A DNA stretch of 42,188 bases from a virus (lineage: Duplodnaviria; Caudoviricetes). The notes beneath the pieces were generated by a model. That model was not told the origin of the DNA. It did not search any database and saw nothing but the letters and a program-made list of their open reading frames with translations. The stretch spans positions 1 through 42,188 of the IMG/VR virus record IMGVR_UViG_3300012943_000016. The stretch is one strand, 5' to 3'. Shown here piece after piece: positions 2,351-37,163 of the stretch. Each line of letters begins with the position of its first letter. Positions within the stretch are counted from its first letter, which is position 1. The position numbers and the translations under genes were made by a program.

Positions 2351-3748
2351 TCAGTCGCAGTAAGCCCCCGCCACCTGCCCGCGCCCCTCTTGTCGGGCCG
2401 CCTGCTCGAGCAATCCCATCTCGGGATCGGTCCATTGCATCAGCTTCACCGCTTTGAAATCCGGGTAGTCATAAGCCACGCCCACGATCGCATCCGCCCG
2501 GTCAGGACTCTTCGTGTTCGTGCGGCTCTTCGGCATCAACTGCAGCTTCCCATCCGGCCGGCCAAACACCTTCACACCGTCCCGCTCCACGTGCACTTCC
2601 TCCTTGTTGAGCAGTTGCTTTTTCAGGATCTCGTCGGCCGGGATGATCAGTTCGCCGCGCTTCAATTTGTCGTTGAGCTGCCACCACTGCTCCGCCGCGA
2701 GGTTGAAATAATGCGGATCGCGCGCCGGAGCATTATTCCCGACCGCCTGTATCTCCACGCCCATCTGCCGGAGCGCGACCAAGTAGCCGTGCCCCACGCC
2801 ATCCTCGTCTCCAAAAAGTTTATACCCCTCTCGGGTCAGCTCCTGCGCGTGTTTGAAAAACCGCATCGTGTTCCGTTCGCTGCTCGGATCGTTCGCCCAC
2901 AAGTCGCGCAGCGCGCACCGGTTCCCGTCTCGCACCGCGATCACGTTTTCATCGCCGCCCCCCTTTGCGAAATCGCAAAACGCCTGTTTGGTCCCCGCGC
3001 GGAAAACCGGCGGCCGGAGCATAGCGTTCTCGTAGTTCACGAACCCGATCACCCGTCCGTCGTTGTTTCCATCGCCGAACTCGCCCGCGATCATCGAGCG
3101 ATAGACGTCCGAATCCTCGCCGTACTGGATCCGCATCGCCTCGATGAATTCCGGCGTGATGTGCGGGCAGTCCGCCGTCGTGATCGCGAAAGACGCGAAG
3201 CGCCCGCTCTTGAACGAGTCGTAGAAGCGTCCGAGCAATCCTCCGGGCGACGAAATATAAAGCAGGTGCGTCGGCTGACACCGGTCGATCGCGATGAAGA
3301 TTTCATCCGCCACCGTCTTCGCCTCGTCCACGATGATCATCAGCGGCCGGCCCGGATACGCGTGGAACCCCTCGAACCGCCCGCCCGCATCAGTAGCGAA
3401 ACCAACGATACGCCCGCCCTCCGGCGTCTCGATCGAGGTTTCATTCCACTTCCAGCCCGCGAATTTTCCGCTGTGCGTTTTGAGCGCCGCAAACATCTGG
3501 TCGCGCACCTGGCGAAACGTCGCACTCGTCAGCACGACCGTTGCACCGGGGAATTCGTGGAGCATGCACAGCGCCAGCACGACGATGCACACCGAGGTCT
3601 TACCCGCGCCGTTCGGCGTGCGCGCCGTCGTCGGCCGTCCGCTCCACACGCTCATCATCAGCCGCGCCTGCCAGCCATAGAGCGTCATCGCGAGCGCGGC
3701 TATGGCGAAGCTCACCGGATTCACCTTTTGCGACATGTCGACCGTCAT
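2351..3748 (-). CDS. terL: Terminase large subunit
   Basis: Walker A TPNGAGKT, Walker B LMIIVDEA, and RNase H-like nuclease motifs DFAKGGGDENV and SPDRADA. Confidence 0.95.
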   Translation of the reverse strand: MTVDMSQKVNPVSFAIAALAMTLYGWQARLMMSVWSGRPTTARTPNGAGKTSVCIVVLALCMLHEFPGATVVLTSATFRQVRDQMFAALKTHSGKFAGWKWNETSIETPEGGRIVGFATDAGGRFEGFHAYPGRPLMIIVDEAKTVADEIFIAIDRCQPTHLLYISSPGGLLGRFYDSFKSGRFASFAITTADCPHITPEFIEAMRIQYGEDSDVYRSMIAGEFGDGNNDGRVIGFVNYENAMLRPPVFRAGTKQAFCDFAKGGGDENVIAVRDGNRCALRDLWANDPSSERNTMRFFKHAQELTREGYKLFGDEDGVGHGYLVALRQMGVEIQAVGNNAPARDPHYFNLAAEQWWQLNDKLKRGELIIPADEILKKQLLNKEEVHVERDGVKVFGRPDGKLQLMPKSRTNTKSPDRADAIVGVAYDYPDFKAVKLMQWTDPEMGLLEQAARQEGRGQVAGAYCD

Positions 3749-4317
3749 CAGCCGGCCCTCCGCTCGCCGCCGTTAAACTCCTGCTGCAATTGGATGATCT
3801 GCGCCCGCTGCTCCGGCGTGATCGTGTGGTGGTGGTTCACATCGCCCTCGATCTTAAGCACCAACTTGCCGAGCAGTGTGCCCAGCAGCGTGTCCGTTTG
3901 GTTCGCGAGCGTCATGAGCTCTCGCTCGCGTTTCCAGTCGCGGAGCGGTTTGGCCCGCAACTCCTCGATCTCCGCCTGCAAATCCGCGCTGCGTTGCCAA
4001 ACCCGTTTGATCAGCTGATCCGCATTGCCCGCAACTCGCGCCACCGCCTTCGCGAGAAACGCCGCGACTCCCGGCACCTTCATGATCTTCGAAGCATGCG
4101 CCTCCGGGTCGGCATAGCCGGCGGTCTTTCCCGCCGCGACCGCCGATCCAGTTTTCAAATACGCGACGCAAAATTCCAGCTGCTTGCGCGAAAGGACGGC
4201 CGCGCCCTGAGGCAAATCGGCGAGGCCCACCGCCTCGAACATTTCCTTCGCGCCCGGCAGCGTCAGCTGCTCCGCCTTATCGGCGTCGGAGGGCGGAAAA
4301 AGGAGAGGCGCGCTCAT
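3748..4317 (-). CDS. terS: Terminase small subunit
   Basis: N-terminal HTH signature LSRKQLEFCVAYLKTGSAVAAGKTAGY, abutting terL. Start placed at ATG 4317 (uncertain). Confidence 0.85.
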   Translation of the reverse strand: MSAPLLFPPSDADKAEQLTLPGAKEMFEAVGLADLPQGAAVLSRKQLEFCVAYLKTGSAVAAGKTAGYADPEAHASKIMKVPGVAAFLAKAVARVAGNADQLIKRVWQRSADLQAEIEELRAKPLRDWKRERELMTLANQTDTLLGTLLGKLVLKIEGDVNHHHTITPEQRAQIIQLQQEFNGGERRAG

Positions 4318-4362
4318 GCGAAATATCCACACGCGCGCGCCTCCGCGAACCAATCCAGAAAC

Positions 4363-4393
4363 CGGGTTAGTTCGGTGAACTAACCCGAACTAA
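4363..4393. promoter_or_regulatory. Perfect 11-bp inverted repeat plus a third GAACTAA copy upstream of terS
   Basis: CGGGTTAGTTC-ggt-GAACTAACCCG (4363-4387), with GAACTAA again at 4387-4393, in the early/late intergenic gap. Confidence 0.55.
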
Positions 4394-4400
4394 GTGTCAT

Positions 4401-4721
4401 TTAGTGCAAATTCGCGGGCAGGTAGTTGGCCAGCACGCACGCCACCTTGCGCCCGGCGCGTGTCGGCGAAATCGTCAGTCCGAACGGTCCGCGCGCAGCC
4501 GTGAAGCTCACGCGCTCGCCGTCATCCAGGCACTCGATGGTCACGCGAAACCCGGAAGCCTTGGCCCGCGGCATCACGCAATGCGACGTATCCGGCAACA
4601 CGGGATCGGCGAACGCACGCGCGAGCCGCTTGCATTCCTTCGCCGCGCGCTGGTTCGCGCGTTTCCGCAAATGCCGCCGCAGGTTCTCGCTGCGATGTAG
4701 TGACTTCCGCCTTACCATCAT
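4401..4721 (-). CDS. Basic hypothetical protein, last gene of the early operon
   Basis: 106-aa ORF with ATGA overlap with the upstream cassette gene at 4718-4721. Confidence 0.7.
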   Translation of the reverse strand: MMVRRKSLHRSENLRRHLRKRANQRAAKECKRLARAFADPVLPDTSHCVMPRAKASGFRVTIECLDDGERVSFTAARGPFGLTISPTRAGRKVACVLANYLPANLH

Positions 4722-5014
4722 TTTTCGATGTTGGTTATCCTATGGTTCGGCAAAAGTCTTTTCAGGATGCCGATGGCGTATTTCCCGAGAGCTGCGCGGA
4801 AGAAAGAGCCCTCGCAGTCCACGATGTACTCCCGGCCTTTGCGGGTCCACGGCGTGCCGTCCATCGCGACTTTGAAGATGATGCCCACCCGACGGAAGAG
4901 CACGATGTAGTATGACCGGAACTCTGGCACCTCTTCGATGCGGCAGCGCCACAGGCCGAACAAAGCCTCACAGCGCAACGCCTCTACGGGGTCTGTTTTG
5001 TTATCAGTGTCCAT
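4718..5014 (-). CDS. Cassette 1 hypothetical protein
   Basis: MDTDNKTDPVEALRCEALFG...LPNHRITNIEK. ATG 5014 lies in the attC1 loop. Confidence 0.7.
   Translation of the reverse strand: MDTDNKTDPVEALRCEALFGLWRCRIEEVPEFRSYYIVLFRRVGIIFKVAMDGTPWTRKGREYIVDCEGSFFRAALGKYAIGILKRLLPNHRITNIEK
4729..4751 (+). other. Left array boundary: attC right-arm half-site or attI-like site
   Basis: GTTGGTTA-tcctatg-GTTCGGC mimics the L'-spacer-R' arm of the attCs but has no complete left arm; only a degenerate GCCTTAC at 4709-4715. Confidence 0.55.
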
Positions 5015-5046
5015 GGTTCGGCGTGGCTGAAGATTGGGCGTTCGCC
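4955..5046 (+). other. attC-like site 1
   Basis: GCCGAAC...tcacagcgcaacgcc / ggcgtggctga...GTTCGCC (92 bp). Confidence 0.85.
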
Positions 5047-5627
5047 CAATTCGCCGTGAAGTAATCGGCCACGGTGTCCGCGAGAGCGGGCGGGATCTCT
5101 GCGCGGAGTTCGGGGCGCATCCCCGACTTTGCCATTTTCCCGCGTGGCAGCACGGGCATGAGAAGCGGCACGTCACCCCACAGCGCGTAGCTTTCGCACC
5201 GCACCGAGCCGGCGACGTGGCGCGCCGCGAAATTCGAGCACTCGACCAGCCGGCGCGGCCGGTCGCAGAGCGCTACGGACCAGGTGAGCAGGTCGAGCGC
5301 CCATTGCGCCGGCTGTTTGTCGCCGCGCAGCCACGGCAGCCAGGCGCGCGCGTATTCTTCGCACGGCGGCGACATCACCACCGCGTCAAATCTATTGATC
5401 CATTCGCGGTCGAGCGTGAGCACGTCGGCTTGCACGAACTCATGCGGGTAGCCGAGTGCGGCGATGTCCACGCCGACGCAGCGCCAGCCACGCGCCGCGA
5501 ATGATTTCGACCACCCGCCGACGCCGCAGAAGAGGTCCAAAACGGAGGGCGAACCAGACGCCACAGCACAATGCCGGGCGCTGTCACGTCCGTCCGCGAT
5601 GTCGATGCTTGGAGCAGCGCCCGTCAT
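5004..5627 (-). CDS. Cassette 2: short DNA cytosine-C5 methyltransferase-like protein
   Basis: Motif I VLDLFCGVGG, VGVDI, catalytic SPPC and a C-terminal RAEIPP. Much shorter than canonical Dcm; start uncertain. Confidence 0.8.
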   Translation of the reverse strand: MTGAAPSIDIADGRDSARHCAVASGSPSVLDLFCGVGGWSKSFAARGWRCVGVDIAALGYPHEFVQADVLTLDREWINRFDAVVMSPPCEEYARAWLPWLRGDKQPAQWALDLLTWSVALCDRPRRLVECSNFAARHVAGSVRCESYALWGDVPLLMPVLPRGKMAKSGMRPELRAEIPPALADTVADYFTANWANAQSSATPNHGH

Positions 5628-5648
5628 GGCTGAGCTTTTCCGTTAGGG
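5548..5648 (+). other. attC-like site 2
   Basis: GGCGAAC...cacagcacaatgccgggcgctg / cagcgcccgtcatggctga...GTTAGGG (101 bp). Confidence 0.85.
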
Positions 5649-5954
5649 CAGGCGTGACCAGTAGGCTTGGAGTTGTGCGCGGCATTCGTAGTAGGAATGA
5701 GCGCGACCGCTCGCCGCCTCGCCAGAGAAGCCGTCGGCCATCTCGTCATTGGCGGTTTCCTCAGCGTATTCTTCGAGCCCTTTAAGGATCGAGGAGATCG
5801 TCACGATTTCGAGCGGGGTGCTCTCGTCGAAGTGTTTCTTCTCGGCGTCCACGTCTGCCGCCGTCGCGTAGTTCCCCAGAAGCCCTAACCATGCGTCCAC
5901 AGCCAACGCCGGGGGCTGTCCGGCTGGCGATTGAGTTTCGGTTTTCGTATCCAT
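5643..5954 (-). CDS. Cassette 3 hypothetical protein
   Basis: 103 aa. Starts in the attC3 loop and stops at the TAA inside the attC2 core. Confidence 0.75.
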   Translation of the reverse strand: MDTKTETQSPAGQPPALAVDAWLGLLGNYATAADVDAEKKHFDESTPLEIVTISSILKGLEEYAEETANDEMADGFSGEAASGRAHSYYECRAQLQAYWSRLP

Positions 5955-6014
5955 AAAGTGCTGTCTTGATGTTATTGGTTTTCGCCCGGCGTCGGCTGAT
6001 CCGCGGCGTTCGGC
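5883..6014 (+). other. attC-like site 3
   Basis: CCCTAAC...cagccaacgccggg / cccggcgtcggctga...GTTCGGC (132 bp). Confidence 0.88.
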
Positions 6015-6292
6015 GAAGGCAGGTAGCGCACGAAGTCGAAGTCATACCACGACCAATCTACACCGGTTGCCGGTTCGATCTTCGACAGCCGGAAGACGGC
6101 GGTTTTCCCGCTCATCATCGCGACGTTGATTTCAACGCCTACGCGATCCGGGCAGCCGTGGTTATACCAGAACGTGGCGCACCCATGGGTGCGGATTGGT
6201 CGGGGGATCGGTTCGGCTTGCGCACGGTTACGCCGAACCACCCGTAGAGCCAACGCGGACAGGCGTGCTTTGGTTTTCGCGAGGGTCTTCAC
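5972..6292 (-). CDS. Cassette 4 hypothetical protein
   Basis: 106 aa. GTG start in the attC4 loop, stop in the attC3 loop, tail SPNAADQPTPGENQ. Confidence 0.65.
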   Translation of the reverse strand: MKTLAKTKARLSALALRVVRRNRAQAEPIPRPIRTHGCATFWYNHGCPDRVGVEINVAMMSGKTAVFRLSKIEPATGVDWSWYDFDFVRYLPSPNAADQPTPGENQ

Positions 6293-6337
6293 GTGTTCGA
6301 GGGCTTAGAGCCGCGTGGCTCACTTGGGACGTTAGCC
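6232..6337 (+). other. attC-like site 4
   Basis: GCCGAAC...gagccaacgcgg / ccgcgtggctca...GTTAGCC (106 bp). Confidence 0.88.
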
Positions 6338-6571
6338 TTGGAGCTGGATTTGAACGTCCATGCTAAACGGCGGCTCGGCACCCATCACGAGATGCGGGCC
6401 GAATATCTGCATCAGTTCCCACATTTGGATGGTACACCATCCATCGGCATCTTCGTTGGGCGGTCCTGATTCGATTCCGATCCGCTCGCGGTCCTGCATG
6501 AAAATCTCGCGCCCTTTGGTATTAAGTTGCACGCGCACGTAGTTGTTCAGATTCCAGATTTGAAAGTTCAT
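6332..6571 (-). CDS. Cassette 5 phage-type hypothetical protein
   Basis: MNFQIWNLNNYVRVQLNTKG...QMWELMQIFG; stop TAA lies within the attC4 core. Confidence 0.75.
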   Translation of the reverse strand: MNFQIWNLNNYVRVQLNTKGREIFMQDRERIGIESGPPNEDADGWCTIQMWELMQIFGPHLVMGAEPPFSMDVQIQLQG

Positions 6572-6589
6572 ATTTTCGGTTAAAAGAAT

Positions 6590-6657
6590 GGCTAACCAGC
6601 GATTACACACAACCTCCGGAGCTTCGCTCCTTCGGTGTGTGACCCGCGATGTTAGCC
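6590..6657 (+). other. attC-like site 5
   Basis: GGCTAAC...acacacaacc / ggtgtgtga...GTTAGCC (68 bp), with an inner ggagc-ttc-gctcc hairpin. Confidence 0.9.
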
Positions 6658-6995
6658 GGACGCCGAAGCTCCGAAAGTAGGTAGTCGCCCACTTCAGGAA
6701 GCTGGTCGCTGTTGAGTTCGATGCTTTTGCGTGAGCGTGGCATCCAATCGAAGCGCATCGCGTTTCCGTTTGCGTCGAACCACTCTACCCATCCTCCGGG
6801 TAGCTGTTTCCACCACGCCTTCACACCCCATGCCCTCCATGAGAGATCGCCGTCCTCGCGGCGCGTGAGATACCAGCCTTTGCGGCGTGGGGTTGTTTCT
6901 TTGTCTTTCCAGAGGCTAACCATCGCACCACAGCCAACGCCCTTGTCCGGGGCTTCGGCGGTATCTGTATCCACTTTATTGTTACTTGAGGTCAT
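6603..6995 (-). CDS. Cassette 6 Trp-rich hypothetical protein
   Basis: 130 aa with P..KGWYLTR...W...W. Start in the attC6 loop, stop in attC5. Confidence 0.75.
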   Translation of the reverse strand: MTSSNNKVDTDTAEAPDKGVGCGAMVSLWKDKETTPRRKGWYLTRREDGDLSWRAWGVKAWWKQLPGGWVEWFDANGNAMRFDWMPRSRKSIELNSDQLPEVGDYLLSELRRPANIAGHTPKERSSGGCV

Positions 6996-7036
6996 AGAGT
7001 TGTTCTCAGGGCGTCGGCTGATTGCGGTCGTTCGGC
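6914..7036 (+). other. attC-like site 6
   Basis: GGCTAAC...cagccaacgccct / agggcgtcggctga...GTTCGGC (123 bp). Confidence 0.88.
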
Positions 7037-7324
7037 TTCATCCTCAGCGTCGAGATCAGGAAGCGACTCCAACGACACTGCGCATTCGTCGGCAAATCGG
7101 TTGATCGCGTATCCGTGGGAGCGACTGGCAAGCACATGCGACCCGTCAAAGTCGGTCTCTCCCGTGGCAGTGCAGCAGATCGGCTGGCCCGACTGCGTAT
7201 GCGTCCAGACGGTCGCGCCGTTTTCGAAAGAAACCGCCGAACCAGAGCTGCCAGACCCAACGCCCTTGCTTTTCAGTTCTTCGACAGCAGCCGTCCGACG
7301 CTCCACATCAGTTGTATTTTCCAT
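6992..7324 (-). CDS. Cassette 7 hypothetical protein
   Basis: MENTTDVERR... starts in the attC7 loop; its TGA overlaps the next ATG (6992-6995). Confidence 0.7.
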   Translation of the reverse strand: MENTTDVERRTAAVEELKSKGVGSGSSGSAVSFENGATVWTHTQSGQPICCTATGETDFDGSHVLASRSHGYAINRFADECAVSLESLPDLDAEDEAERPQSADALRTTL

Positions 7325-7371
7325 AGTATTACAGCCCGCGCGGCGGGCGTTGGTCATCAGCGTTGTTCGCT
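7236..7371 (+). other. attC-like site 7
   Basis: GCCGAAC...gacccaacgccc / gggcgttggtca...GTTCGCT (136 bp). Confidence 0.85.
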
Positions 7372-7676
7372 AAGGAAAAAGCCGCGCGCACGCACTCGGG
7401 ACATAGTTGCGCCGTCCGGCTTTCGTAGTCCGGCGGCTCGCCGACCTGAATCAGAGCATCCACCTCTTTTTTGCACTCATCGCATGTCATGCGTGTCCAG
7501 CTTCGATTCCCGATGATGCGTTCGATGTCATCCTCGGTCGCGGTTTCCACGTTGATACGATCTAGTTCTTTGGCGATTTTGCCTTTCGAGTCGTCCCACT
7601 TTTGGAACGGCGTATATGTCTGCCGCCAGTGCGCGGGCACTCTGCGGATGATTTCTCTTTTGGTCGTGAGGTTCAT
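7329..7676 (-). CDS. Cassette 8 zinc-finger-like protein
   Basis: CDEC...CPEC motifs; stop in the attC7 loop. Confidence 0.75.
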   Translation of the reverse strand: MNLTTKREIIRRVPAHWRQTYTPFQKWDDSKGKIAKELDRINVETATEDDIERIIGNRSWTRMTCDECKKEVDALIQVGEPPDYESRTAQLCPECVRAAFSLANNADDQRPPRGL

Positions 7677-7683
7677 GATCGGA

Positions 7684-7803
7684 AGCGAACCATCCACTAG
7701 AGCCAACGGCCCTAGCTTCAGGCGGATTGTTGATTAGGGCGTGCGGTCGATTTTCTGGCTAGGTATCCCGCTCTCGGGGCCGTTGCTCACTGGGGCGTTC
7801 GAC
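7684..7803 (+). other. attC-like site 8
   Basis: AGCGAAC...gagccaacggccc / gggccgttgctca...GTTCGAC (120 bp). Confidence 0.88.
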
Positions 7804-8144
7804 CTACTCGGCGCGGTGACTCCGAGCGCGACGAGCGCAGCGTATGCTTTGCCGCGATACTTTCCGCGCTGGAATCGGTGCAGGGCGATCCACGGAGTAT
7901 CTTGCCCTTCGTGGCGGTTGTGCTCCGCGTGGATTGCGCGAGCCACCTTGTCTTGCATTTTCTCAAATGCTTTAGGCGAGCACTGGCCGTCCCCGAATAC
8001 TTCGCACGCGCGGCACGGCGTTGCCTGCTTCCTGAGTTCGGCATGGAGTTCGGACGCAAGCACGCTGCATTTTGTCAGCGCCTTGGATGCGCCTGCTGCC
8101 TCGATGGCATGGCAGAGCGCGAGAGCTTTCTTAGATGTTGTCAT
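7734..8144 (-). CDS. Cassette 9 hypothetical protein
   Basis: 136 aa; tail RSNAPVSNGPESG is encoded by the attC8 right arm. Confidence 0.75.
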   Translation of the reverse strand: MTTSKKALALCHAIEAAGASKALTKCSVLASELHAELRKQATPCRACEVFGDGQCSPKAFEKMQDKVARAIHAEHNRHEGQDTPWIALHRFQRGKYRGKAYAALVALGVTAPSRSNAPVSNGPESGIPSQKIDRTP

Positions 8145-8167
8145 GTTTTCGTGAGGTTAAAAGAGAG

Positions 8168-8225
8168 GTCGAACCAAGCCATCACAGCCAACGCCTAGCG
8201 GCGTGGCTGACTGGCGATGTTCGAC
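8168..8225 (+). other. attC-like site 9 (classic ~59-base element)
   Basis: GTCGAAC-caagccatcacagccaacgcc-tagc-ggcgtggctgactggcgat-GTTCGAC (58 bp). Confidence 0.92.
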
Positions 8226-8413
8226 GCGGCGGCCTTCGCCAGTTCTGCGATCTCCCGTGCGAGCGATCGCCTTTGCTTCTTCGTCTCGCACAGGTCGATT
8301 GCCTCGAGCCAGTAGTGCTCAGATAGCCGAGCGCGGGCGAAGAGCTGTGCGAGCGCCGCTTTCGAACCAGCGACCACACCCAACGCGGATGACGTGTCGT
8401 TTTGATTACTCAT
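8195..8413 (-). CDS. Cassette 10 hypothetical protein
   Basis: MSNQNDTSSALGVVAGSK...ASNIASQPRR. Start in the attC10 loop, TAG at the attC9 apex. Confidence 0.7.
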   Translation of the reverse strand: MSNQNDTSSALGVVAGSKAALAQLFARARLSEHYWLEAIDLCETKKQRRSLAREIAELAKAAASNIASQPRR

Positions 8414-8449
8414 GGCTGTTTTCGCGTGGGTGATTCGCGGTCGTTGGCC
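8361..8449 (+). other. attC-like site 10
   Basis: TTCGAAC...cacccaacgcg / cgcgtgggtga...GTTGGCC (89 bp). Confidence 0.85.
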
Positions 8450-8745
8450 GAACAAGATTTCCGCCGTGAAGTCCGCTCCTTCCAAATCCTCACAGCCTCA
8501 GTCCAAAAGATACTCTGCCATACTCCATCTACTCGGCTGTGCATCCGATCTAGTTCCTTTATCAAGCGAAGGCGCAAGCGTCGCAGATCAGCGGCTGGCA
8601 ATACGGCTTCTTCGCCTGCAAGCTCACGTTTTATCGCTGCAAGAGAAAGCCGAGACCTCCGAACGGAAAACGAAAAGGGCTTAGTGAAATTTCGTGCTGC
8701 GCACGCTTCGATTATAGCGGGGACTTCAGTTGTTTTGGTTTTCAT
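8410..8745 (-). CDS. Cassette 11 hypothetical protein (visibly lower GC)
   Basis: 111 aa; TGA overlaps the next ATG (8410-8413) inside attC10. Confidence 0.65.
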   Translation of the reverse strand: MKTKTTEVPAIIEACAARNFTKPFSFSVRRSRLSLAAIKRELAGEEAVLPAADLRRLRLRLIKELDRMHSRVDGVWQSIFWTEAVRIWKERTSRRKSCSANDRESPTRKQP

Positions 8746-8755
8746 AAGAAAAGAG

Positions 8756-8859
8756 GGCTAACCAGTTCGATAGTGGGAACACATTTTAAGCGGCCAACGG
8801 GCGCGAGGGGCAGCAACGGGCGGGCTCAGGAGCTGTGTCCCACATCTCCATTGCTCGGC
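8756..8859 (+). other. attC-like site 11 with altered core (GCT instead of GTT)
   Basis: GGCTAAC...gtgggaacaca / tgtgtcccaca-8 nt-GCTCGGC (104 bp). Confidence 0.7.
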
Positions 8860-9059
8860 AAGTGGAGGTGGGTGAGGCCGTGGCGCTCGATGTATGCTGC
8901 GTGTATGTAGCCCTGATCCCATGCGGCTGCTTTGGCTGCGTCGCTTGGGTAGGGATTTGGTGTGCGAAAACTGCCGCGCCTCTGGGTCATATAGCCCGCT
9001 TGATATGCGTCTCGGTAGATATCCCCGGAAGCCGAGCCCGCCGCCTTTAGTGTATCCAT
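8826..9059 (-). CDS. Rmf/CrpP-fold-like small protein
   Basis: AYQAGY...PNPY...AWDQGY resembles the ribosome modulation factor pattern GYQAG...CPY...W.GGW. Confidence 0.55.
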   Translation of the reverse strand: MDTLKAAGSASGDIYRDAYQAGYMTQRRGSFRTPNPYPSDAAKAAAWDQGYIHAAYIERHGLTHLHLPSNGDVGHSS

Positions 9060-9091
9060 ATTTTTAGACCCCGGAAAATTAATTGCTCCAC

Positions 9092-9391
9092 TCACAGCAT
9101 TTTCTCGATCGCGCGTTCCGTTTTCTTCATCCCCTCGGCGATGTCCGAGATGGTCCAGCCGGCCTTCTTGCGTAGTATCGCCGCCACTACGCGGCGCTTC
9201 CTCGCGGTGTCCCGCTCCTTGCTCCGGCCCTGCAGTGTCCGCACGCCGATTCCCGCCTGGCGGCATGCCTCCGCCAGTTCCGGATCCACTTCCGCTGCCG
9301 GCACCAGGCCGCGCAGACCATTCGCCGCCTCCAGCTCGTTCATGCGTTTTCGCATCCGCGCAAACTCCATCTTCATCTCGTCGGTACTCAC
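9092..9391 (-). CDS. DnaA C-terminal-like helix-turn-helix protein
   Basis: LQGRSKERDTARKRRVVAAILRKKAGWTISDIAEGM matches the DnaA domain IV pattern; directly after the initiator. Confidence 0.7.
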   Translation of the reverse strand: MSTDEMKMEFARMRKRMNELEAANGLRGLVPAAEVDPELAEACRQAGIGVRTLQGRSKERDTARKRRVVAAILRKKAGWTISDIAEGMKKTERAIEKML

Positions 9392-10299
9392 CGTGCACCG
9401 CCCTTCGCCATCTGCTCCCGGATGAATTTGCGATCAATCGCCGCGTGCGCTTTCCACGCGAGCGGCCCCGGCTCCTGTCCCGCTGCGTATTTCCAAGCAG
9501 GGAAATTTTCATCCATCCACGCCTGCCAGCCCTCCGGCTCGTCCCTCCCCGTGGCTCGCTCCTGCCGCTCCTCCGTACGCACCGGAGCTTTCGGCAGCCA
9601 AGCCTCCGCGAAAAACCGCAGTTCCAGCTCCGCCTTCTCGCCGCGTTCCTTGCGCACGTACGCCAGCGCCTCACGCCGCTGCTGCGCGAGGTCCACGAGA
9701 GGGAACCGCCGTTGCAGCTCCTCAAAATCCGACTCATCCAAAATTTTATTGTGTCGTGTCGTCGTCGTCGCCTCCGGCAACGCACCGAACGCCGGAGCCC
9801 CCGGCGCCGGAGAACTAGAACCACGACCACTACTCTCTTCTTCTCTTCTCTTCTCTTCTCTGGTCCCGATTTCCGGCGGTTTCTGTCCGCCATCTGTCCG
9901 GCTTTTGTCCGGACACATGGCGGACAAACGTCCGGCCCTTGTCTGCTCCGCCTCCGCGATTCGTGAGGCCCGTTTCCGCTCCATTTCCAACGCCCGCACT
10001 TTCGCAGACTCGCCATTATGCCGGTCAAATTTCGGAAACCTCACGCCCTCCGCTGTGCACTCGATCCAGCCCACATCCTCCATCGCCGCAGTGAATCCAC
10101 GCCGGCCCAGCTTCTCGTCGATCACCTTGGCCGTCACATGCGGCAGGAACCCGTCCGCCGCGTGCTCATCCGCCCAGCTCCACAGCGTTTGCAGCCGCCC
10201 CACGACACCGTAGCGGTCGAGTTTTGTCCGCGCGGCGATGCCTATCACCGCAGGATCGTCGGCGAGGTTCATCCGCATTTTAATCCAGTCGTTGGCCAT
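9388..10299 (-). CDS. Phage replication initiator / replisome organizer
   Basis: MANDWIKMRMNLADDPAV...VVGRLQTLWSWADEH N-terminus typical of phage initiators, with a low-complexity linker carrying iterons. Confidence 0.8.
   Translation of the reverse strand: MANDWIKMRMNLADDPAVIGIAARTKLDRYGVVGRLQTLWSWADEHAADGFLPHVTAKVIDEKLGRRGFTAAMEDVGWIECTAEGVRFPKFDRHNGESAKVRALEMERKRASRIAEAEQTRAGRLSAMCPDKSRTDGGQKPPEIGTREEKRREEESSGRGSSSPAPGAPAFGALPEATTTTRHNKILDESDFEELQRRFPLVDLAQQRREALAYVRKERGEKAELELRFFAEAWLPKAPVRTEERQERATGRDEPEGWQAWMDENFPAWKYAAGQEPGPLAWKAHAAIDRKFIREQMAKGGAR
9833..9935. repeat. Putative replication origin (iterons inside the initiator gene)
   Basis: Clustered TGTCCG/CGGACA repeats (9884-9935) next to a (TCTCT/TCT)n pyrimidine tract, like lambdoid origins inside O-type genes. 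Confidence 0.6.
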
Positions 10300-13233: not shown

Positions 13234-14088
13234 TTAGAGGCCGATACTCTCCACGCTGCCGAGCAGCACGGGCAGGCCGGTGTCCTTGGCGATCGCGTCG
13301 CGCACGTCCTTAAACGCGAGTTCCACGAGGCGGTGCGGGCGGTCCAGCAGGTAGGTGAATTGTACCGCGCGGTTCACCAGCTTGGTGCGCAAGCGCGCTT
13401 TGATCGCGTACCGTGTGCCACCGATGAAAGGCTGCAACGCCAGCTCCATCTCGGTCGGCACCTCCATCGCGCCGCCCGGCCCGGCCTGCTGCTGTAGATT
13501 CTCCACGTACTGGAGCTGCACCTGGCCGTTGCTGAGTCGCGTCGCGCTGTTAAACGTCACGTCGTTTTTCATCACGAGCGATTGCGCAATCTGGAGCATA
13601 TCGATTCCCGAGGGCTTTTGGATCTCGCCGAGCATGTCTTCGACAAACTCCGCGAAAGCCTGTTGCCCCATCGGTTTCTCGTTATTCTCGATCCAGCGCT
13701 TCCACTCCGGCGTCTGCGCCATCGCGTAGTTCACGCGATGCTCGCCCCATGCCGGACGCTGCTCGCTTGCCGGCGCGTCTGCTCCGAGATCCTCGCTGCC
13801 CTCATGCCCGTCGATCACCGCGGCAAACGCGCCGCCGCTCAGGCTCGCGCGACCGTACAATGCCGTGCCTGGCTGCCGGTGGTTCTTCACGTAGCGGATG
13901 AACGACTCGCCGTCATCCACGGCCACCTTCGCGCGCTTGCGACGCGGACGATCGGCGTGCTTTTCGAGCGAGGTGATGGTCTTGTCGGGAAAGATCAGGA
14001 CCGAGGTCCAAAGATCGCGCGTATCGACGCGATCGTGTTGCTGTGCCGCGCGGACGATGTCCGCCACTGCTCCTGCTTCTGTGCTCAT
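13234..14088 (-). CDS. yfdQ: YfdQ / DUF2303 family protein
   Basis: SLEKHADRPRRKRA...SFIRYV...AVIDGH...WGEHR...TPEWKRW...QQAFAEFVED. Confidence 0.85.
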   Translation of the reverse strand: MSTEAGAVADIVRAAQQHDRVDTRDLWTSVLIFPDKTITSLEKHADRPRRKRAKVAVDDGESFIRYVKNHRQPGTALYGRASLSGGAFAAVIDGHEGSEDLGADAPASEQRPAWGEHRVNYAMAQTPEWKRWIENNEKPMGQQAFAEFVEDMLGEIQKPSGIDMLQIAQSLVMKNDVTFNSATRLSNGQVQLQYVENLQQQAGPGGAMEVPTEMELALQPFIGGTRYAIKARLRTKLVNRAVQFTYLLDRPHRLVELAFKDVRDAIAKDTGLPVLLGSVESIGL

Positions 14089-14129
14089 GAATTCGGTGCG
14101 TGTTTTGTGGGTTGGGCTGCCGGGAAAAG

Positions 14130-14534
14130 TTACGAATTGCTGACCTGCTTCACGGGCTGCACCGGCTCCGCCGGCACTTCCACCACGGAGGGCATTTCGA
14201 GCTGCTTCGGGTCGTTGCGCATCAAGCGGCCGTCATCGTCCGCGAAGTAGATGGTCACTCCCCCGTCAGTCTTCGGCAGCTTGATCGAGACCTCGTCATC
14301 GATCGCGAGGATCTCCACGTTGCCCTTCGAGTTCGGCGAGACCTTCACCTTCCACGTCATCGTCCCCGGCTTGCGGGTGCGGCGCACGTGGGCGACGAGT
14401 TCACGCATATTCGCGTCGAGGTCGGCGAGCGATACGCCCTTGCGCATTGTCTGGAGCGTGGCGAGGAAGCCGCCCTCCGGCAGCTGATTGGCCGGTTTCG
14501 CGCCCGTCGGATTGTCCTGTGTTGGATAAGGCAT
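14130..14534 (-). CDS. YfdP-like protein (usual partner of YfdQ)
   Basis: FLATLQTMRKG...KPGTMTWKVKVSP...IYFADDDGRLMRNDPKQLEM, adjacent to yfdQ. Confidence 0.75.
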   Translation of the reverse strand: MPYPTQDNPTGAKPANQLPEGGFLATLQTMRKGVSLADLDANMRELVAHVRRTRKPGTMTWKVKVSPNSKGNVEILAIDDEVSIKLPKTDGGVTIYFADDDGRLMRNDPKQLEMPSVVEVPAEPVQPVKQVSNS

Positions 14535-14560
14535 GATTCGGATGGTTTTGGGGTTAAAAT

Positions 14561-14887
14561 TCACTTCACGCTCGTTACGTTGCCGACCTTCACGAGGTCC
14601 GCGCCTGGCACGAACACCAGTGCCTCCGAACACACGGCCATGCCCTTCTTGCGGGCGCAGGTATTGATGATCAGGCCGCCGGCCGCGCGCATCGCCCGCG
14701 TCGTCTTCGTCCAGCCCGTATTCGGGTCGATGATATGCTGGATCGTCACCCACGCGTTCGCATCGCCCTCGATCTTGAGGGCCACGCGCACCTTCGGTTT
14801 TTCCGGAGTGGCTACCGGCGCCGGCGTCCGCGCGCTGTACCCACGCGGGGAATACGCCCGGCCCTGAGAGGAGAAATTACCGGGCAT
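14561..14887 (-). CDS. Phage-type hypothetical protein
   Basis: GWTKTTRAM...GGLII...SEALVFVPG. Confidence 0.65.
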   Translation of the reverse strand: MPGNFSSQGRAYSPRGYSARTPAPVATPEKPKVRVALKIEGDANAWVTIQHIIDPNTGWTKTTRAMRAAGGLIINTCARKKGMAVCSEALVFVPGADLVKVGNVTSVK

Positions 14888-15266
14888 ATTTCGCCGCCTC
14901 CCCGTGCTGAGATTGAGTCGTCGCACGCTCTTCGGCTGCTTTGGCAGCTTCGGCTCGGGCCACGCGCGCCTTTTTGCCGGCAGCTTCGCGTTCCCGATAG
15001 GCCTCGGCCGTCAGCACCTCGCGTCGCGACACCGCGAGCCCGGCGGGCCTTACCTCCGCGCCGCGCTCCACGAGCACATAATCATAGCCATACTCGCCGC
15101 CAGCGCGCGCGACGCACAAATACTCCTCTTTGACCGGTTTCAGCAGCTCGTTCGAAAACAGATCCAGCAACTGCATGAGAAGCTCACTCTTCACAGAGTC
15201 AGCGACGATATATTCCTGCCCATTAATGGACAGCACCCGACGTGTTTTTAATGATGTTTCAGGCAT
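14877..15266 (-). CDS. Hypothetical protein
   Basis: 129-aa ORF within the operon. Confidence 0.6.
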   Translation of the reverse strand: MPETSLKTRRVLSINGQEYIVADSVKSELLMQLLDLFSNELLKPVKEEYLCVARAGGEYGYDYVLVERGAEVRPAGLAVSRREVLTAEAYREREAAGKKARVARAEAAKAAEERATTQSQHGEAAKYAR

Positions 15267-15278
15267 AACAAAAAATTT

Positions 15279-15854
15279 TCAGCGGCACACCGCTTCCACG
15301 CGGCCGATCAAGTTCCGGTTCGAGACTAGCCGCAGATCCTGCCGGCCATTCGCGTCCCCCTTGGTCACCCACCACCGCCCCTCGCGGCGGATCGCCCGGT
15401 GCATGACCGGGTACCCGTGCCAGTAACTGTGGAACACGATCACATCGCCCGCGCTCAACTGCTCCGCGCGGACCGGCACCACGATTGCCCATGTGCCCGG
15501 CGGGAAGTCCGGGCACATGGAGCGGCCCGTCACGCGCATCAGCGTCCACGCGGCCCGATCTGCCGGGCGGTCCACAGCCGCGGTCACAACATCCGCCGCC
15601 TGCACCCGCGCCCCGCAGAAAAAGAAAAGCACCAGCCCGATCCCCAGCAACCCCGCCTGCCGCATCCGGGCCACACCGCCCAGCCCGCGCTCCTTGATCA
15701 TCGCCACGATCTCCGGCTTGATGAAGCGCCGCTGACGCTTGCTCGTCCCCTGGTCGATGAACGGGAGGTCTCCGTCCGCGCACCGTTGGTTGATCGTGCG
15801 CTTGCTCACGCCGATCGCCTTCGCCAGCCGCGCCGGCGTCCAGCAACGCTTCAT
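15279..15854 (-). CDS. Fusion: excisionase-like HTH + transmembrane helix + S26 (SipW/Sec11-type) signal peptidase
   Basis: WTPARLAKAIGVSKRTINQRCADGDLP (HTH), GLLGIGLVLFFFC (TM), TGRSMCP, GDVIVF, VMHR and TKGDAN..D (S26). GGAG precedes ATG 15854. Confidence 0.75.
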   Translation of the reverse strand: MKRCWTPARLAKAIGVSKRTINQRCADGDLPFIDQGTSKRQRRFIKPEIVAMIKERGLGGVARMRQAGLLGIGLVLFFFCGARVQAADVVTAAVDRPADRAAWTLMRVTGRSMCPDFPPGTWAIVVPVRAEQLSAGDVIVFHSYWHGYPVMHRAIRREGRWWVTKGDANGRQDLRLVSNRNLIGRVEAVCR

Positions 15855-15988
15855 CGCTCCACGCTCCGGCGCGACCTCTCGCGAGTGCTCCGCCGCCACC
15901 GCGTCGGCCGGGTTTTGAAAATGCCGGATGTGCAACATCCCGTCGTCTCCGCGAACAAGCGCGGCCCGTGGTAGTGAAGTTTCCATGA

Positions 15989-16153
15989 CTAAAAAATCCC
16001 CCGGCCCGCGCGCTTGGCCTGCGCCGCGAGAGCGAACCGCTTCATGCGCCGATGCCCGCGCACCTCGTCCACGACCACCGAGACGACCGCCATGCATAGG
16101 CCTGCGCCACCGCCCATGATCATCGCCCGCGCCAGTTCCGCCGCGTAGCTCAT
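15989..16153 (-). CDS. Small membrane peptide (54 aa)
   Basis: MSYAAELARAMIMGGGAGLCMAVVSVVVDEVR..., ATGA overlap with the upstream ORF; translated by hand. Confidence 0.45.
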   Translation of the reverse strand: MSYAAELARAMIMGGGAGLCMAVVSVVVDEVRGHRRMKRFALAAQAKRAGRGIF

Positions 16154-16353
16154 TGCGCCCCCTCCGGCTTCGCCTGCGCGAAGTTCACTGCAAGCACCTC
16201 GCCCGTTTGGGCTGACGCCGCCTCAAGCTCGGTCCACCGTTCCTCGGCAAAGTCGATTGACCGCTCGAAATGCGCCAGCTGTTGGGCTTGGCTGGCTGGC
16301 CACATTTTCCGCAAGACCCGTATCGTGCGGCGAAGCTCATTTGCTGCGTTCAT
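16150..16353 (-). CDS. First gene of the early lytic operon (cro position), function unknown
   Basis: 67 aa, divergent from the repressor; no clear HTH. Confidence 0.55.
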   Translation of the reverse strand: MNAANELRRTIRVLRKMWPASQAQQLAHFERSIDFAEERWTELEAASAQTGEVLAVNFAQAKPEGAQ

Positions 16354-16420
16354 ATCATCAGTGATGACTTCAAATCATCACGCAGCAAGTTTAATTTTGC
16401 ATTTTTATCATCACTGCTGT
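16354..16420. promoter_or_regulatory. Lysis-lysogeny switch with three operator-like repeats
   Basis: AT-rich gap with the palindrome TCATCA-G-TGATGA (16355-16367) and ATCATCA at 16374-16380 and 16407-16413. Confidence 0.7.
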
Positions 16421-16433
16421 TTTCTCTCCGGCC

Positions 16434-17000
16434 ATGCCTCGTACACTCTTCGGACAGACCCTCGGCGCGCTGATTGCCCAACATCACGGTTCGGGTCGTG
16501 AATTCGCCCGCCTGTGCGATGTTGATAGCGCCACGATCAGCCGTCTCATCGCTGGCGAGACGCGATGCTCCCTCGAAAATCTCCGCGTCTTCTGCGAGAA
16601 AATCAGCCCGCAGGCGCTCCAGCGTTACGAGCTGCTCCTCGCCCACCTCCACGACGAAGCAGAGGCGTCCGGCCTTGACGTATCCAGATTACTATTACGC
16701 CACGTTGAGGGCGTTAATCTCTCCGAACTGGAGCTTTCCCCCGAGATGAATGGCCAGCTTGGCGTCATCGCGCGCGCCGCTGGTGATATTCCCGAAGTCG
16801 CCGAAAGCGTAGAAGCCCTCTCCGGGCTCATTTGCCGTTATCGCGCCATGCAGGCCGATCAAACCCGATACCCACTCACCGAAGTTCCCGCGCTACAAGT
16901 GGCCGAGGCCGCTACGGATAAGAGCGTGAAGACGATGATCGCCGCACGAGAAAAGAAGGTAAAACCTCCTCGTCCCAAGTCTGCCAAAAACGCTTCCTGA
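16434..17000 (+). CDS. XRE-family HTH repressor (CI-like)
   Basis: FGQTLGALI...SGREFARLCDVDSATISRLIAGETRCSLENL, divergent orientation; no S24 peptidase domain visible. Confidence 0.8.
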   Translation: MPRTLFGQTLGALIAQHHGSGREFARLCDVDSATISRLIAGETRCSLENLRVFCEKISPQALQRYELLLAHLHDEAEASGLDVSRLLLRHVEGVNLSELELSPEMNGQLGVIARAAGDIPEVAESVEALSGLICRYRAMQADQTRYPLTEVPALQVAEAATDKSVKTMIAAREKKVKPPRPKSAKNAS

Positions 17001-17181
17001 CCTCCTCCGGCATCGCCTCATCAGCGGTCCGCAACGCGCGGGTGTGATCGTCGCGCTGACCCGGTTTGCGGCGCAGTTCCCACAACTCTTTGAATCGCGC
17101 AAACGCGTGATCATCGATCGCCTCCAGAGCCAGCTCCAACGCCAACGGCCGTAAATAAAGCGGGATATTTCTTATTCTCAT
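16912..17181 (-). CDS. Hypothetical protein
   Basis: 89 aa, convergent with and overlapping the repressor 3' end. Confidence 0.4.
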   Translation of the reverse strand: MRIRNIPLYLRPLALELALEAIDDHAFARFKELWELRRKPGQRDDHTRALRTADEAMPEEVRKRFWQTWDEEVLPSFLVRRSSSSRSYP

Positions 17182-17317
17182 AGTCTAAGGGTTAACGTTT
17201 CACATCGGAGCCGATGAGGCCTCGCGTCACCGTTTGCGTTACAAAAGGTGCGCTAAGTGGGCATTGCCGCAAATCCGCCCTAGAAGCGGGAGACACTCCG
17301 GCCGATGTTACCCACGC

Positions 17318-18006: not shown

Positions 18007-19128
18007 CTAAGACCGGATCACCCCCGGCCTCAATCCCCAAAACACCTTCGCCGCCTTCTCGTCCACGAGCCGGTGATAATGGCGGAAGATGATGTCCGGG
18101 CTGTTGCCCGCCTCGCGCGCCACCGCGCCCTCGTCCGGCTTTATGGCGAGGCGCATCGAGATGAAGGTGTGCCGCGGAGTATCCTGCCCCCAGGTCACGC
18201 CCGCCGCCTTGGCGATGCGCACGCGCCAGTACCGGTGCACATCGTATAGAGCGGCCGGATACGCCTTCAACCACGCGATCGCATTTGGGGAGAGCGGCAC
18301 GGTGCGGTTGGCCCGTCCCCGCGTCTTGCCGCCCTCCACGCGCACACACGGTTCACCCGCCAGCTCCACGCGGCAATGTGCGAGTTCGCTCGGCCTCACT
18401 CCCGCGAAAAGCAGCAGCACCAGGCCAGCCACCGCCTCCGGCGCCCGGCGTGCGGTTTCGTCGAGGATCGCGCGCGCTTCCCCTGCCCACCAAATCGCCG
18501 GCCGCGCCCGTTCCACATGCGGCCTCCGCAGGCGACTCACCGGGTTTTCCCGCAGCCACCCCTTCGATTCGAGCCACCCGCAAAAACTCGACGCGGCGTT
18601 CAGGTCGTTGCGTCGTGTCGCGGCGGATACGCCCTTGCGCATCAGCAGCAATTCCGCCGCCTCCCGATTGATCTCCGCCACATCGGTCACCGCCGCCATT
18701 TCCAGCCACGCCCCCACGCGCAAGCGCAAATTCTGTATCGCCCGCATAGCCCGGTTTTCAGCCTGCTTCACCTTGAGGAATTCCGCGAGCGCCGCGCGCG
18801 CATCGCGTGCCGCAACCGTGCTCGTCCCGAGCTGCTGCACATAGAAACGAGCGATATCCACCATCGAGTCCCGCAGATTGGCCACAGACAGGACTTCGCG
18901 GGCGGCAAAATAGTCAGCCCGCGCGCGATGATCGAATTCCACGCCCGATGTGCCCGAAACCACCAGCTGCCGGTTGATCTCGTTGAGGTGCTTTTCTGCC
19001 TCGTCCCTTTCCACAAAGTGGCGGCGCACCCGGCGTGCGCGCCCGCGTCGATCCTTCTTTGACGGGTCGGAGTAAACGACCTGCCACATCGGTTTCGGTT
19101 TGGTCACGGAGTAGAGTTTTGCGAGCAC
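18007..19128 (-). CDS. int: Phage tyrosine integrase
   Basis: Arm-binding N-terminus, SAM-like domain, and catalytic GVRPSEL, GKTR, PRHTF, AGNS and RHY motifs; adjacent to attP. Confidence 0.92.
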   Translation of the reverse strand: MLAKLYSVTKPKPMWQVVYSDPSKKDRRGRARRVRRHFVERDEAEKHLNEINRQLVVSGTSGVEFDHRARADYFAAREVLSVANLRDSMVDIARFYVQQLGTSTVAARDARAALAEFLKVKQAENRAMRAIQNLRLRVGAWLEMAAVTDVAEINREAAELLLMRKGVSAATRRNDLNAASSFCGWLESKGWLRENPVSRLRRPHVERARPAIWWAGEARAILDETARRAPEAVAGLVLLLFAGVRPSELAHCRVELAGEPCVRVEGGKTRGRANRTVPLSPNAIAWLKAYPAALYDVHRYWRVRIAKAAGVTWGQDTPRHTFISMRLAIKPDEGAVAREAGNSPDIIFRHYHRLVDEKAAKVFWGLRPGVIRS

Positions 19129-31035: not shown

Positions 31036-32658
31036 TTAAATGAGCACGGGCGTGTCCAGCCACGCCGCCATTTTGAATTTGCGCAGCCCGATCTGCCCGG
31101 AGCCGCTGTGGATGATGATCTGCGCCTCCCGAAACCGCGATTGATTGCGGATGTGCCACGACGCCCGCCGCGTGTACTGCGAGGAGAATGTGAATGGCAG
31201 CGGCAACGGAAACGTCAGGAACGTGCTCCCGTTGAAGCCCGCTTCGATCACCCGCGCGCTCTCCAGTGCGATCTCGGGAAATGTCTGTTCATCGTCCCCC
31301 ACGAAAAGCACCGCGATCGAGGTCGAGCTCGATCGGTGGAACTCCGCTTCCAACCAGAACGGCATTTTCTGCGCCTCGTGCTGGCCAAACCACATCGCCC
31401 GCGATTGCACCCACGACTCGATTTCCTCCGCACCGCCGGTCGCGTCGTCGTCCTCGTAGCTGTCGTCCAGCCGGGTGATGTAGCCGTCCGGGTACGCCCA
31501 AAGCGTTTCCTGCTTTCCCGCGAACCGCGTCACACACGCGTAGCCCCACACCGGCAGCGCGCTTTCGGGCGACCATTCCCACTCGCCCACCCATTCTTTC
31601 GTCAGCGTGTTATACGCGAGCACCCGGTTTGCCTCCGTCGCCCCGTCGATCGGGATCGCGAGCAACAGCAGGTTGCGCCACAGCGTGCTGCTCGCACCGC
31701 GTTCGTTATCCACCGCCGTCCAGTTGATCCGCTCGATCGTCCGGTTGACCGGTGCCGAAATTGTATTCGCCGGGGAAATACTGTCCCTCGTCACCAGTCC
31801 CGAGAGGCTCACCAGTCCGTACCGGCTCAGAAAATACACGTCCTGTCCGATCATGATCGCCGTCGCGCCGGCCACGCAGCCGGCCACGTCGGTCAGCTTC
31901 GTCACCGGCCAGTCCACCGCGTTTTGCGCGCTCGTATCCACGCTCCAGCATGACCCCTCGTTCAGCACGATCAGGTCCGCCTGCTGACCGCTGATCATCT
32001 TCCGCGTCGGATCGCCATTGCCGGAGCCCACGATGATGTTTTCCAGCGAGTTCCAGTCGCCGCCCGTGTCGCTCAGGTGCGCCGAGAGGTACTTCGAGAC
32101 GAAAATTTTATTCGTGTTCGCCTGGCACGCGAACACCCGAAACCGGTGCGTCGTCAGCAGGCCAAACACAGGCATGTCCGACCCGTCGCTAAATTTCGTC
32201 ACCGTCCCATCGCTCCACGCCGCGCCGTTCCAGTACGCCCACATCAGATTCGCCGTGTTCGCGACGAAAACCCGGTCGATCAATTGCGTCATCGCCTTGC
32301 GCCCCGTCGCCGGCAGCCCGCCCGCCGCCACAGTCACCGGTGTCTGCGGCGCCGTGTCGCTGATGATTTCCCACAGGTCCGTTCCCGCCGGGAAAATCAC
32401 CGACTCCCGCGACGGCGTATCGAAGTACACCAGGCCGGCCAGCGCCGCCCCGGTGGTCGGGAGCGTGTCCGAGACCAGCCGCCGGCCCGGCCGTGTATTC
32501 AAGACTCCATTCGTCTCCATCCAGCAATTCACCGCGCGCGTCAGCGAGCCCGGCGTCAGATCGGCGGGATTTGCCGTATTATTCAGCCGGAAAAACCCGC
32601 CCTCCTCTTCCTTTTGGGGCGTGTCATCCAAACCGTCGTTGTAGAGAGGCAGCGTCAT
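31036..32658 (-). CDS. Tail nozzle / packaged-DNA stabilisation protein (P22 gp10/T7 gp12-like)
   Basis: 540 aa, beta-rich; TRPG, VAGCVAG, VYFLSRYG and VLAYN...EW motifs. Confidence 0.75.
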   Translation of the reverse strand: MTLPLYNDGLDDTPQKEEEGGFFRLNNTANPADLTPGSLTRAVNCWMETNGVLNTRPGRRLVSDTLPTTGAALAGLVYFDTPSRESVIFPAGTDLWEIISDTAPQTPVTVAAGGLPATGRKAMTQLIDRVFVANTANLMWAYWNGAAWSDGTVTKFSDGSDMPVFGLLTTHRFRVFACQANTNKIFVSKYLSAHLSDTGGDWNSLENIIVGSGNGDPTRKMISGQQADLIVLNEGSCWSVDTSAQNAVDWPVTKLTDVAGCVAGATAIMIGQDVYFLSRYGLVSLSGLVTRDSISPANTISAPVNRTIERINWTAVDNERGASSTLWRNLLLLAIPIDGATEANRVLAYNTLTKEWVGEWEWSPESALPVWGYACVTRFAGKQETLWAYPDGYITRLDDSYEDDDATGGAEEIESWVQSRAMWFGQHEAQKMPFWLEAEFHRSSSTSIAVLFVGDDEQTFPEIALESARVIEAGFNGSTFLTFPLPLPFTFSSQYTRRASWHIRNQSRFREAQIIIHSGSGQIGLRKFKMAAWLDTPVLI

Positions 32659-35635: not shown

Positions 35636-35641
35636 GGCAGG

Positions 35642-35923
35642 TTATCCTTCGTTGTCGGGCATCGCCCAGGCTTCTTTGATTTTCTTCGCTGAGTAGGTGG
35701 ATTTGCCGAGCTTGCCCGCATCCTCGAGCGCGCGGTACCCCTTGAGCACTTCGGAGGCTTGGTGCTCGGTCTGGTTGATGCGTGGCGTCGAGATCCGCGA
35801 GGGTACCCTGCGCCGCTTCAAGACCACGCCGCCCTGCACGATCTCGTCGCGCAGCTGCGTCACGGCCATATACACATCGACCGTCAGCCCGGCCTCCGCG
35901 TTCTCAAATTCGTAGATCGGCAT
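35642..35923 (-). CDS. FmdB-like protein lacking zinc-ribbon cysteines
   Basis: MPIYEFEN...LKRRRVPS; no CxxC. Confidence 0.55.
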   Translation of the reverse strand: MPIYEFENAEAGLTVDVYMAVTQLRDEIVQGGVVLKRRRVPSRISTPRINQTEHQASEVLKGYRALEDAGKLGKSTYSAKKIKEAWAMPDNEG

Positions 35924-35930
35924 CGGAGTA

Positions 35931-36200: not shown

Positions 36201-36211
36201 GGCGTTGTGTA

Positions 36212-37140: not shown

Positions 37141-37163
37141 GGGTTGTTTATGGGTGGGAAAAA

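Follow-up and report, generated by a model that had tools for sequence, protein, structure and literature searches.

Introduction

Integron cassettes carry attC sites, imperfect palindromes of about 57-142 nt that end in an R'' box (RYYYAAC) and an R' box (GTTRRRY) and have two or three extrahelical bases on the R''-L'' arm (PMC2727003). Clusters of attC sites in phage genomes have already been published as CALINs, clusters of attC sites lacking an integrase gene (Qi et al. 2023, PMC9892861). Here we analyse such an array in one complete viral record of 42,188 bases with direct terminal repeats (IMG/VR record IMGVR_UViG_3300012943_000016; Duplodnaviria, Caudoviricetes), the whole of which we call the window. 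The array, a cluster of attC sites without intI nearby, lies between the terminase small subunit gene (terS) and a replication gene of the phage. It resembles the published phage CALINs in being a row of small attC-bounded genes with a DNA methyltransferase among its cargo and no intI nearby. It has 11 sites, whereas the phage CALINs in Table S1 of that paper have 2-4. Where the text of the paper speaks of orientation, this is typical or the sites are divergent; the same text, with which our comparison was made, mentions neither overlap of genes with the hairpins nor genes that are inverted relative to attC. We consider it probable that this temperate phage carries a row of eleven integron-type cassettes whose attC top strand is the + strand and whose genes likely lie on the opposite, phage-transcribed strand, and that the row was likely assembled by an integron integrase encoded outside this genome.

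Classical integrons, those of the host family (L240-L253) included, share with the array the anatomy of attC, the G|TT crossover point and the pairing of cores within a cassette, and the host-family integrons have the same attC sequence family. Unlike them, the window has its cassette genes on the bottom strand, no intI and no Pc-like promoter that we could find: 4300-9400 holds one sigma-70-like match against 1.7 expected, none of it at the left end, with a scan that may not fit the host. On the bottom strand, the first extra base of the window's sites is T, which they have in common with the host-family sites, and not the G of classical sites. In inverted-integrase integrons of the Treponema type, as outlined in 10.1101/030866, intI and cassette genes are co-directional, as they are in related phage arrays; there, however, intI is turned against attC, while in the phage arrays intI and attC stand in their usual geometry and the genes alone are reversed. 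Off-target insertion at attG sites, as presented by Loot et al. (10.1101/2022.09.11.507474), could explain the start of an array without intI, although the window's right core, GCT, departs from the attG consensus GWT and its left junction is attI-like. The window array is a phage attC array of the inverted type, and a literature search by title and start of abstract, with subscription journals mostly outside its coverage, returned no description of gene-inverted phage arrays. The present analysis adds breakpoints resolved to single bases, a control set of host integrons that use the same attC family, and a sample of phage IntIs.

Core pairing and cassette boundaries

All 12 cores and 11 R'' boxes of the initial annotation were confirmed at their positions. 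The 11 attC sites are 58-136 nt long, with AAC in 11/11 and GTT in 10/11, the last having GCT. It had been proposed that each R'' matches the R' at the start of its own cassette, and this pairing is real: it is 7/7 in nine of the 11 cassettes and 6/7 in cassettes 10 and 11, as against perfect pairing in only 2/11 linear hairpins. At the four variable core positions, 42 of 44 letters match within the cassette versus 25 within the linear hairpin and a null mean of 27.6, and not one of 200,000 permutations reached 42 (p ~5e-6). The pairing ends after position 7; position 8 matches in 4/11. Circularised in silico, the bottom strand folds better than the linear form at 9/11 sites and equally well at 2, so both this comparison and the permutation test, which had been suggested as checks, bear the claim out. 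Own-core pairing is an ordinary property of cassette arrays, since 44/50 bodies in other phage arrays pair 7/7. The further proposal that the units are bounded by G|TT stands for the first 11 cores and fails for the last (8853), which reads G|CT.

That the hairpins are merely terminators or chance inverted repeats would suit their position between small genes, yet we give this practically no credence. Besides the permutation result, terminator-like sites are no more frequent than in shuffled sequence (4 vs 5.6), genes read through the hairpin arms, and the precise breakpoints at G|TT described below refute it; the initial annotation had likewise dismissed generic hairpins and terminators. Of the 19 matches to a 17-letter attC pattern, none coincides with a detected attC site, and the L033 match is likewise due to chance.

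Breakpoints in other contigs

The cassettes have really moved at G|TT. We compared the region with contigs of five runs (X1, marked as a possible source, X5, X10, X11 and X12), which show presence and not absence. The matches listed contain 33 distinct loose ends: 12 coincide with a G|TT core and 6 with an R'' box, and the other 15 are mostly short matches inside genes or hairpins. At least 7 of the 12 junctions (5040, 5642, 6651, 7030, 8219, 8443 and 8853) have a different neighbour in another contig; the near-identical cassettes break there at G|TT, which upholds the earlier reading of the array as a footprint of cassette mobility. The G|CT junction at 8853 has changed its neighbour despite lying outside GWT. 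An X10 contig begins at 5642, the start of cassette 3, with another attC arm before it, and another is identical to cassette 5 over 6349-6653 before passing into a different cassette. Contigs of X5 span cassette 6 (6650-7036) between other neighbours, cassette 10 (start 8218/8219) follows a different attC arm in each of X5, X10 and X11, and an X11 contig identical over 8853-9154 has another attC arm before it. Cassettes 5, 6 and 10 travel with their right hairpin in these contigs, and homologs add cassettes 6 and 2; the homolog of cassette 2 in L130/L131 (80% identical) has the same cores and a right hairpin of the same 101 nt, with a different left hairpin. The first 250 nt of cassette 11 (8443-8692) occur in X1 in a second context, with a different right side after 8692. 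Its left flank there ends AATAACACT, of which 17/20 letters equal the L251 host junction by eye, and the depths of the two contexts (11.6 and 7.9) roughly sum to that of the shared part (17.8-18.5).

A different kind of exchange has to be weighed, in which the hairpins are old attC sites that now serve as 60-130 nt homology islands, so that phage homologous recombination swaps genes without IntI. Whole hairpins, loop included, do recur with unrelated bodies: that of cassette 1 is found with other bodies or neighbours, that of cassette 4 with another body in X12, and that of cassette 6, ~86% identical, in L053 and L071 with different bodies, while L032 and L086 share two adjacent hairpin types with differing bodies between them. 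The lack of an IntI in the window also fits. Nevertheless, most of the informative breakpoints lie at the G|TT core, where the arm directly to the left is dissimilar, and not inside shared hairpins; the 11 hairpins are just 36% alike by column; and related arrays have kept an intact intI and junction. We therefore regard exchange through homology islands as unlikely. A top-strand crossover at R'' would swap hairpins and keep the core pairing; alternatives for the recurrence of hairpins are homologous recombination and the genesis of cassettes with stock hairpins.

The attC top strand

The initial annotation held that the pairing fixes the + strand as attC top strand. Its conclusion is right on other evidence, but its argument fails: because both cores flanking a body pair equally on either strand, core pairing is strand-symmetric and cannot fix the top strand, and we rejected it as a strand marker. 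The + strand is the top strand on the basis of the extra bases, the homologs that keep their right hairpin, the hairpin at the right end and the polarity seen beside host intI genes. Net extra bases lie on the + strand 5' (R''-L'') arm at 9/11 sites with + scoring and at 8/11 with - scoring. Judged by eye, and in most alignments, the + strand has A as its first extra base and the bottom strand accordingly T. In the homolog of the cassette 6 protein (P0001), the leader coded by the right hairpin is kept and divergence begins directly after the left core. A full hairpin closes the right end of the array and none the left; the only candidate left of 4745, a weak one (9.0) at 4479-4659, lies inside a gene and was rejected. 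The same attC family has + polarity beside host intI genes, with forward genes, and the position of intI in related arrays likewise supports the + strand.

These same observations leave very little room for the opposite assignment, with the - strand as attC top strand and ordinary, forward cassettes. Apart from the symmetry of the pairing, two genes stop on the TAA of a core, as genes of forward cassettes often do, and fold energies do not separate the strands (bottom better at 7/11 sites, top at 4/11); against it stand the extra bases on the + strand 5' arm, the right hairpins kept in homologs while the left ones change, the closed right end and the host polarity. At site 11 the predicted bottom-strand fold differs from the expected hairpin.

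Gene direction and overlap with the hairpins

Eleven other genes of the window served to train an amino-acid score, which prefers the - strand in 12/12 bodies, and homologs back this strand for the genes of cassettes 2, 5 and 6. The coding evidence thus suggests that the cassette genes all lie on the bottom strand, opposite to the attC top strand; the classical placement, on the top strand and ending before or in R'', is not what we find. Proposed starts, which were chosen by us, lie inside the gene's own hairpin for 7/11 genes. Eight of the 11 genes end in the neighbour's hairpin, one runs through the left junction and two end on a core TAA. Stop-to-start gaps within the array range from -11 to 57 nt.

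Integrons of the host family

Genomes of the host family, which we take to be Opitutaceae, served as comparison, and 55 of the 121 have an IntI over the cut-off. Fourteen host-type loci hold 58 bodies, 48 forward, 7 reverse and 3 unclear, in arrays that use the same attC family as the window. The reverse-scoring bodies stand in L244, L248 and L252; phage-type cassettes kept in store may be among them. As in the window, 46/69 host sites have A as first extra base, and 56/73 sites of phage IntI loci have G; because these host-family sites beside a true intI share the A, a bottom-strand G as first extra base is not a strict requirement. The T content of the loops is 0.22 in hosts, 0.33 in phage loci and 0.32 in the window.

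The shared attC family, the worn left junction and the GCT of the right core could speak for a single capture of a piece of host chromosomal integron that has been frozen since. Against this, host arrays are mostly forward (48/58) while 12/12 bodies here are reverse, cassette genes have free phage-like relatives without hairpins, and a near-identical phage flank in X11 bears another cassette at 8853. A frozen capture is accordingly quite improbable.

Related phage arrays with an integron integrase

In L131, the phage that shares the methyltransferase cassette, the array is headed by an IntI that scores above the TIGR02249 cut-off and is encoded between the genes for helicase and primase; this IntI as query led to 47 viral loci. 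Among the 22 closest (L161-L182), 19 have scored arrays with 50 bodies, 46 of them inverted, 2 forward and 2 unclear; seven of the other 24 loci have scored arrays, in which 22/24 bodies are inverted. We excluded L092, which has the same sites as the window; L160 duplicates L161 and L138 duplicates L154, and the identical IntIs of L197 and L201 are both counted. The TIGR02249 cut-off is exceeded by 6/10 IntIs tested, and most of 15 scanned loci are flanked by phage genes (62/101 listed proteins scanned). A conserved junction marks the start of intI in phage IntI loci; in L161-L182 the intI start codons lie within or just past this attI-like junction. Several arrays of that group are in Mu-like phages, and five scanned arrays have methyltransferase genes in or near them. 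The Geminisphaera prophage L154, whose terminase is 60% identical, has an intI of this kind, the junction and a cassette that is methyltransferase-like and whose cores pair 9/9; there (reverse coordinates 13944-17290) intI, junction and inverted cassettes stand between ssb and a DHH gene. In a quick tree, which also took proteins from an IntI profile search without context, 20/23 IntIs of inverted arrays fall in one branch (SH-aLRT 94) and 3 outside, so by this tree inverted arrays do not form one IntI clade. A pattern scan of metagenomes found scorable arrays at 19/97 loci, 8 forward, 6 inverted and 5 uncalled; beside one inverted array (L086, 1270-1500) are tandem repeats of 6 and 12 nt that encode a stretch rich in Gly-Asp/Ser.

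The methyltransferase gene forms a full cassette in L130/L131, is accompanied by no more than the R''-L'' half of a hairpin in L132 and lacks a hairpin in L133; these forms are possibly stages of cassette gain or loss. The array bears on the origin of cassettes, two cassette genes having hairpin-free relatives and one a half-hairpin relative.

Proposed mechanism and source of the integrase

Circles opened at G|TT would enter the array either between cassettes or at the left junction (4745), through recombination of the folded bottom strand. Their genes would be read from the phage early operon toward the terminase, which would reverse the logic of bacterial integrons and make a Pc promoter unnecessary. 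The hairpin loops may double as translation joints: with 7/11 starts in the own hairpin and 8/11 ends in the neighbour's, a new neighbour would alter the last 8-21 codons of a protein.

The phage's own tyrosine integrase was rejected as cassette recombinase, as it is not an integron integrase. The most likely enzyme, on balance, is the host's chromosomal IntI; an IntI of phage type, supplied by a phage resident in the same host or by an ancestral one, could well have done it. We tentatively sketch a broader picture of mirror-image phage integrons, with IntIs and a shared attI in early operons, gene-inverted cassettes and hairpins as portable translation joints. IntI-less arrays might plug into host chromosomal integrons that store and pass on the same cassettes, and crossover at R'' might swap hairpins together with N-terminal leaders while keeping the core pairing. 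A point for such sharing with host integrons is that in X1 cassette 11 also follows a flank resembling a host-type attI.

Several findings weigh against the array being made of gene-inverted cassettes moved by an outside integron integrase. The complete 42-kb record has no TIGR02249 match to an integron integrase, and among the contig matches listed (contigs only) there is neither a circle junction nor a clean deletion of a single cassette. Exchange through the bottom strand alone does not explain why whole hairpins recur with unrelated bodies, and in its simple form it is insufficient for an X5 contig that is identical over 7029-7246 (cassette 7), has another attC arm before it and diverges on the right 4 nt after R''. 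The left junction is a weak attI match: at 7.3 bits it ranks second of the window's 952 GTT sites against a profile of 16 junctions beside phage intI genes, 12 of which score 14.8-21 when left out, and one unrelated site scores higher; that site, at 37146 (8.3 bits), is far from any attC and probably a chance match. The right core, G|CT, lies outside GWT. Sites 3 and 6 have no net 5' extra base, the first extra base on the bottom strand is T and not the conserved G (by-eye alignment), the strand margins of the genes in cassettes 1, 4, 7 and 11 are small, and 7/58 host bodies also score reverse.

Mosaicism of small accessory genes in phages is usually attributed to homologous or illegitimate recombination. 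The array points to a site-specific route to such mosaicism between the replication and packaging genes, and suggests that there is traffic between phage arrays, with their stock of methyltransferases, and host integrons, with their stock of defence genes.

Cassettes and genomic surroundings

Table 1. Positions of the array's junctions and cassettes and of other genes in the window
Feature	Position	Strand	Remarks
Terminase small subunit gene (terS), left flank	3748-4353	-	
Gene of unknown kind, left flank	4401-4721	-	no intI in 3748-4721
Left junction	4729-4751	+	worn attI-like site, G|TT at 4745; no attC arm to left
Cassette 1	4746-5040	+	attC1 4955-5046; gene 4718-5014 (-), unknown; core pairing 7/7
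Cassette 2	5041-5642	+	attC2 5548-5648; gene 5004-5627 (-), DNA methyltransferase, phrog_363 E 1e-14
Cassette 3	5643-6008	+	attC3 5883-6014; gene 5643-5954 (-), stop is TAA of its core
Cassette 4	6009-6331	+	attC4 6232-6337; gene 5972-6292 (-), small strand margin
Cassette 5	6332-6651	+	attC5 6590-6657; gene 6332-6571 (-), stop is TAA of core; phrog_5792 E 1e-6
Cassette 6	6652-7030	+	attC6 6914-7036; gene 6603-6995 (-)
Cassette 7	7031-7365	+	attC7 7236-7371; gene 6992-7324 (-)
Cassette 8	7366-7797	+	attC8 7684-7803; gene 7329-7676 (-), two CxxC motifs
Cassette 9	7798-8219	+	attC9 8168-8225 (58 nt); gene 7734-8144 (-)
Cassette 10	8220-8443	+	attC10 8361-8449; gene 8195-8413 (-)
Cassette 11	8444-8853	+	attC11 8756-8859, ends G|CT; gene 8410-8745 (-), marginal strand call
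Right-flank gene	8826-9059	-	weak Rmf/CrpP-fold match; ends inside attC11
Small gene, right flank	9092-9391	-	adjoins terS in relatives
Replication initiator gene, right flank	9388-10299	-	
Phage tyrosine integrase gene	18007-19128	-	phrog_1 E 3e-16; XerC/D matches weak; no TIGR02249

Pfam gave no family for 10 of the 11 cassette proteins and the methyltransferase only below the cut-off. Atlas searches with cassettes 6 and 8 returned unnamed viral clusters only, and a search for relatives of cassette 8 found only itself. The stretch 8853-9059 is possibly a relic twelfth cassette, judging from its letters: cores at 8853 and 9031 pair 7/7 (C in place of T) without a hairpin, for which the chance is ~0.05.

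The window is an Opitutaceae-like temperate phage of 42 kb, with terminase subunits, replication initiator, capsid protein and phage tyrosine integrase encoded on its - strand. Named relatives of its terminase come from Geminisphaera (61%), one Opitutaceae and one Verrucomicrobiales metagenome-assembled genome, and the host is therefore likely to belong to Verrucomicrobiota. The array was absent at 12 loci of replication-initiator relatives, annotated phages gave no match to it, the terminase as single query had no match in viral contigs, and no RNA data set holding the window was among the matches listed. An empty-site state, with terS directly beside the homolog of the 9092-9391 gene, is found in L138/L154 and L144; at the equivalent place between these two genes, L141 and L156 have attC sites. 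Elsewhere in the window, 19377-28091 (-) encodes a protein of 2904 residues that weakly matches a virion RNA polymerase (phrog_2206, E 4.5e-4), and 31036-40390 (-) holds an amidase-like gene and genes for a pectate-lyase-like tail spike and a GDSL-like tail protein.

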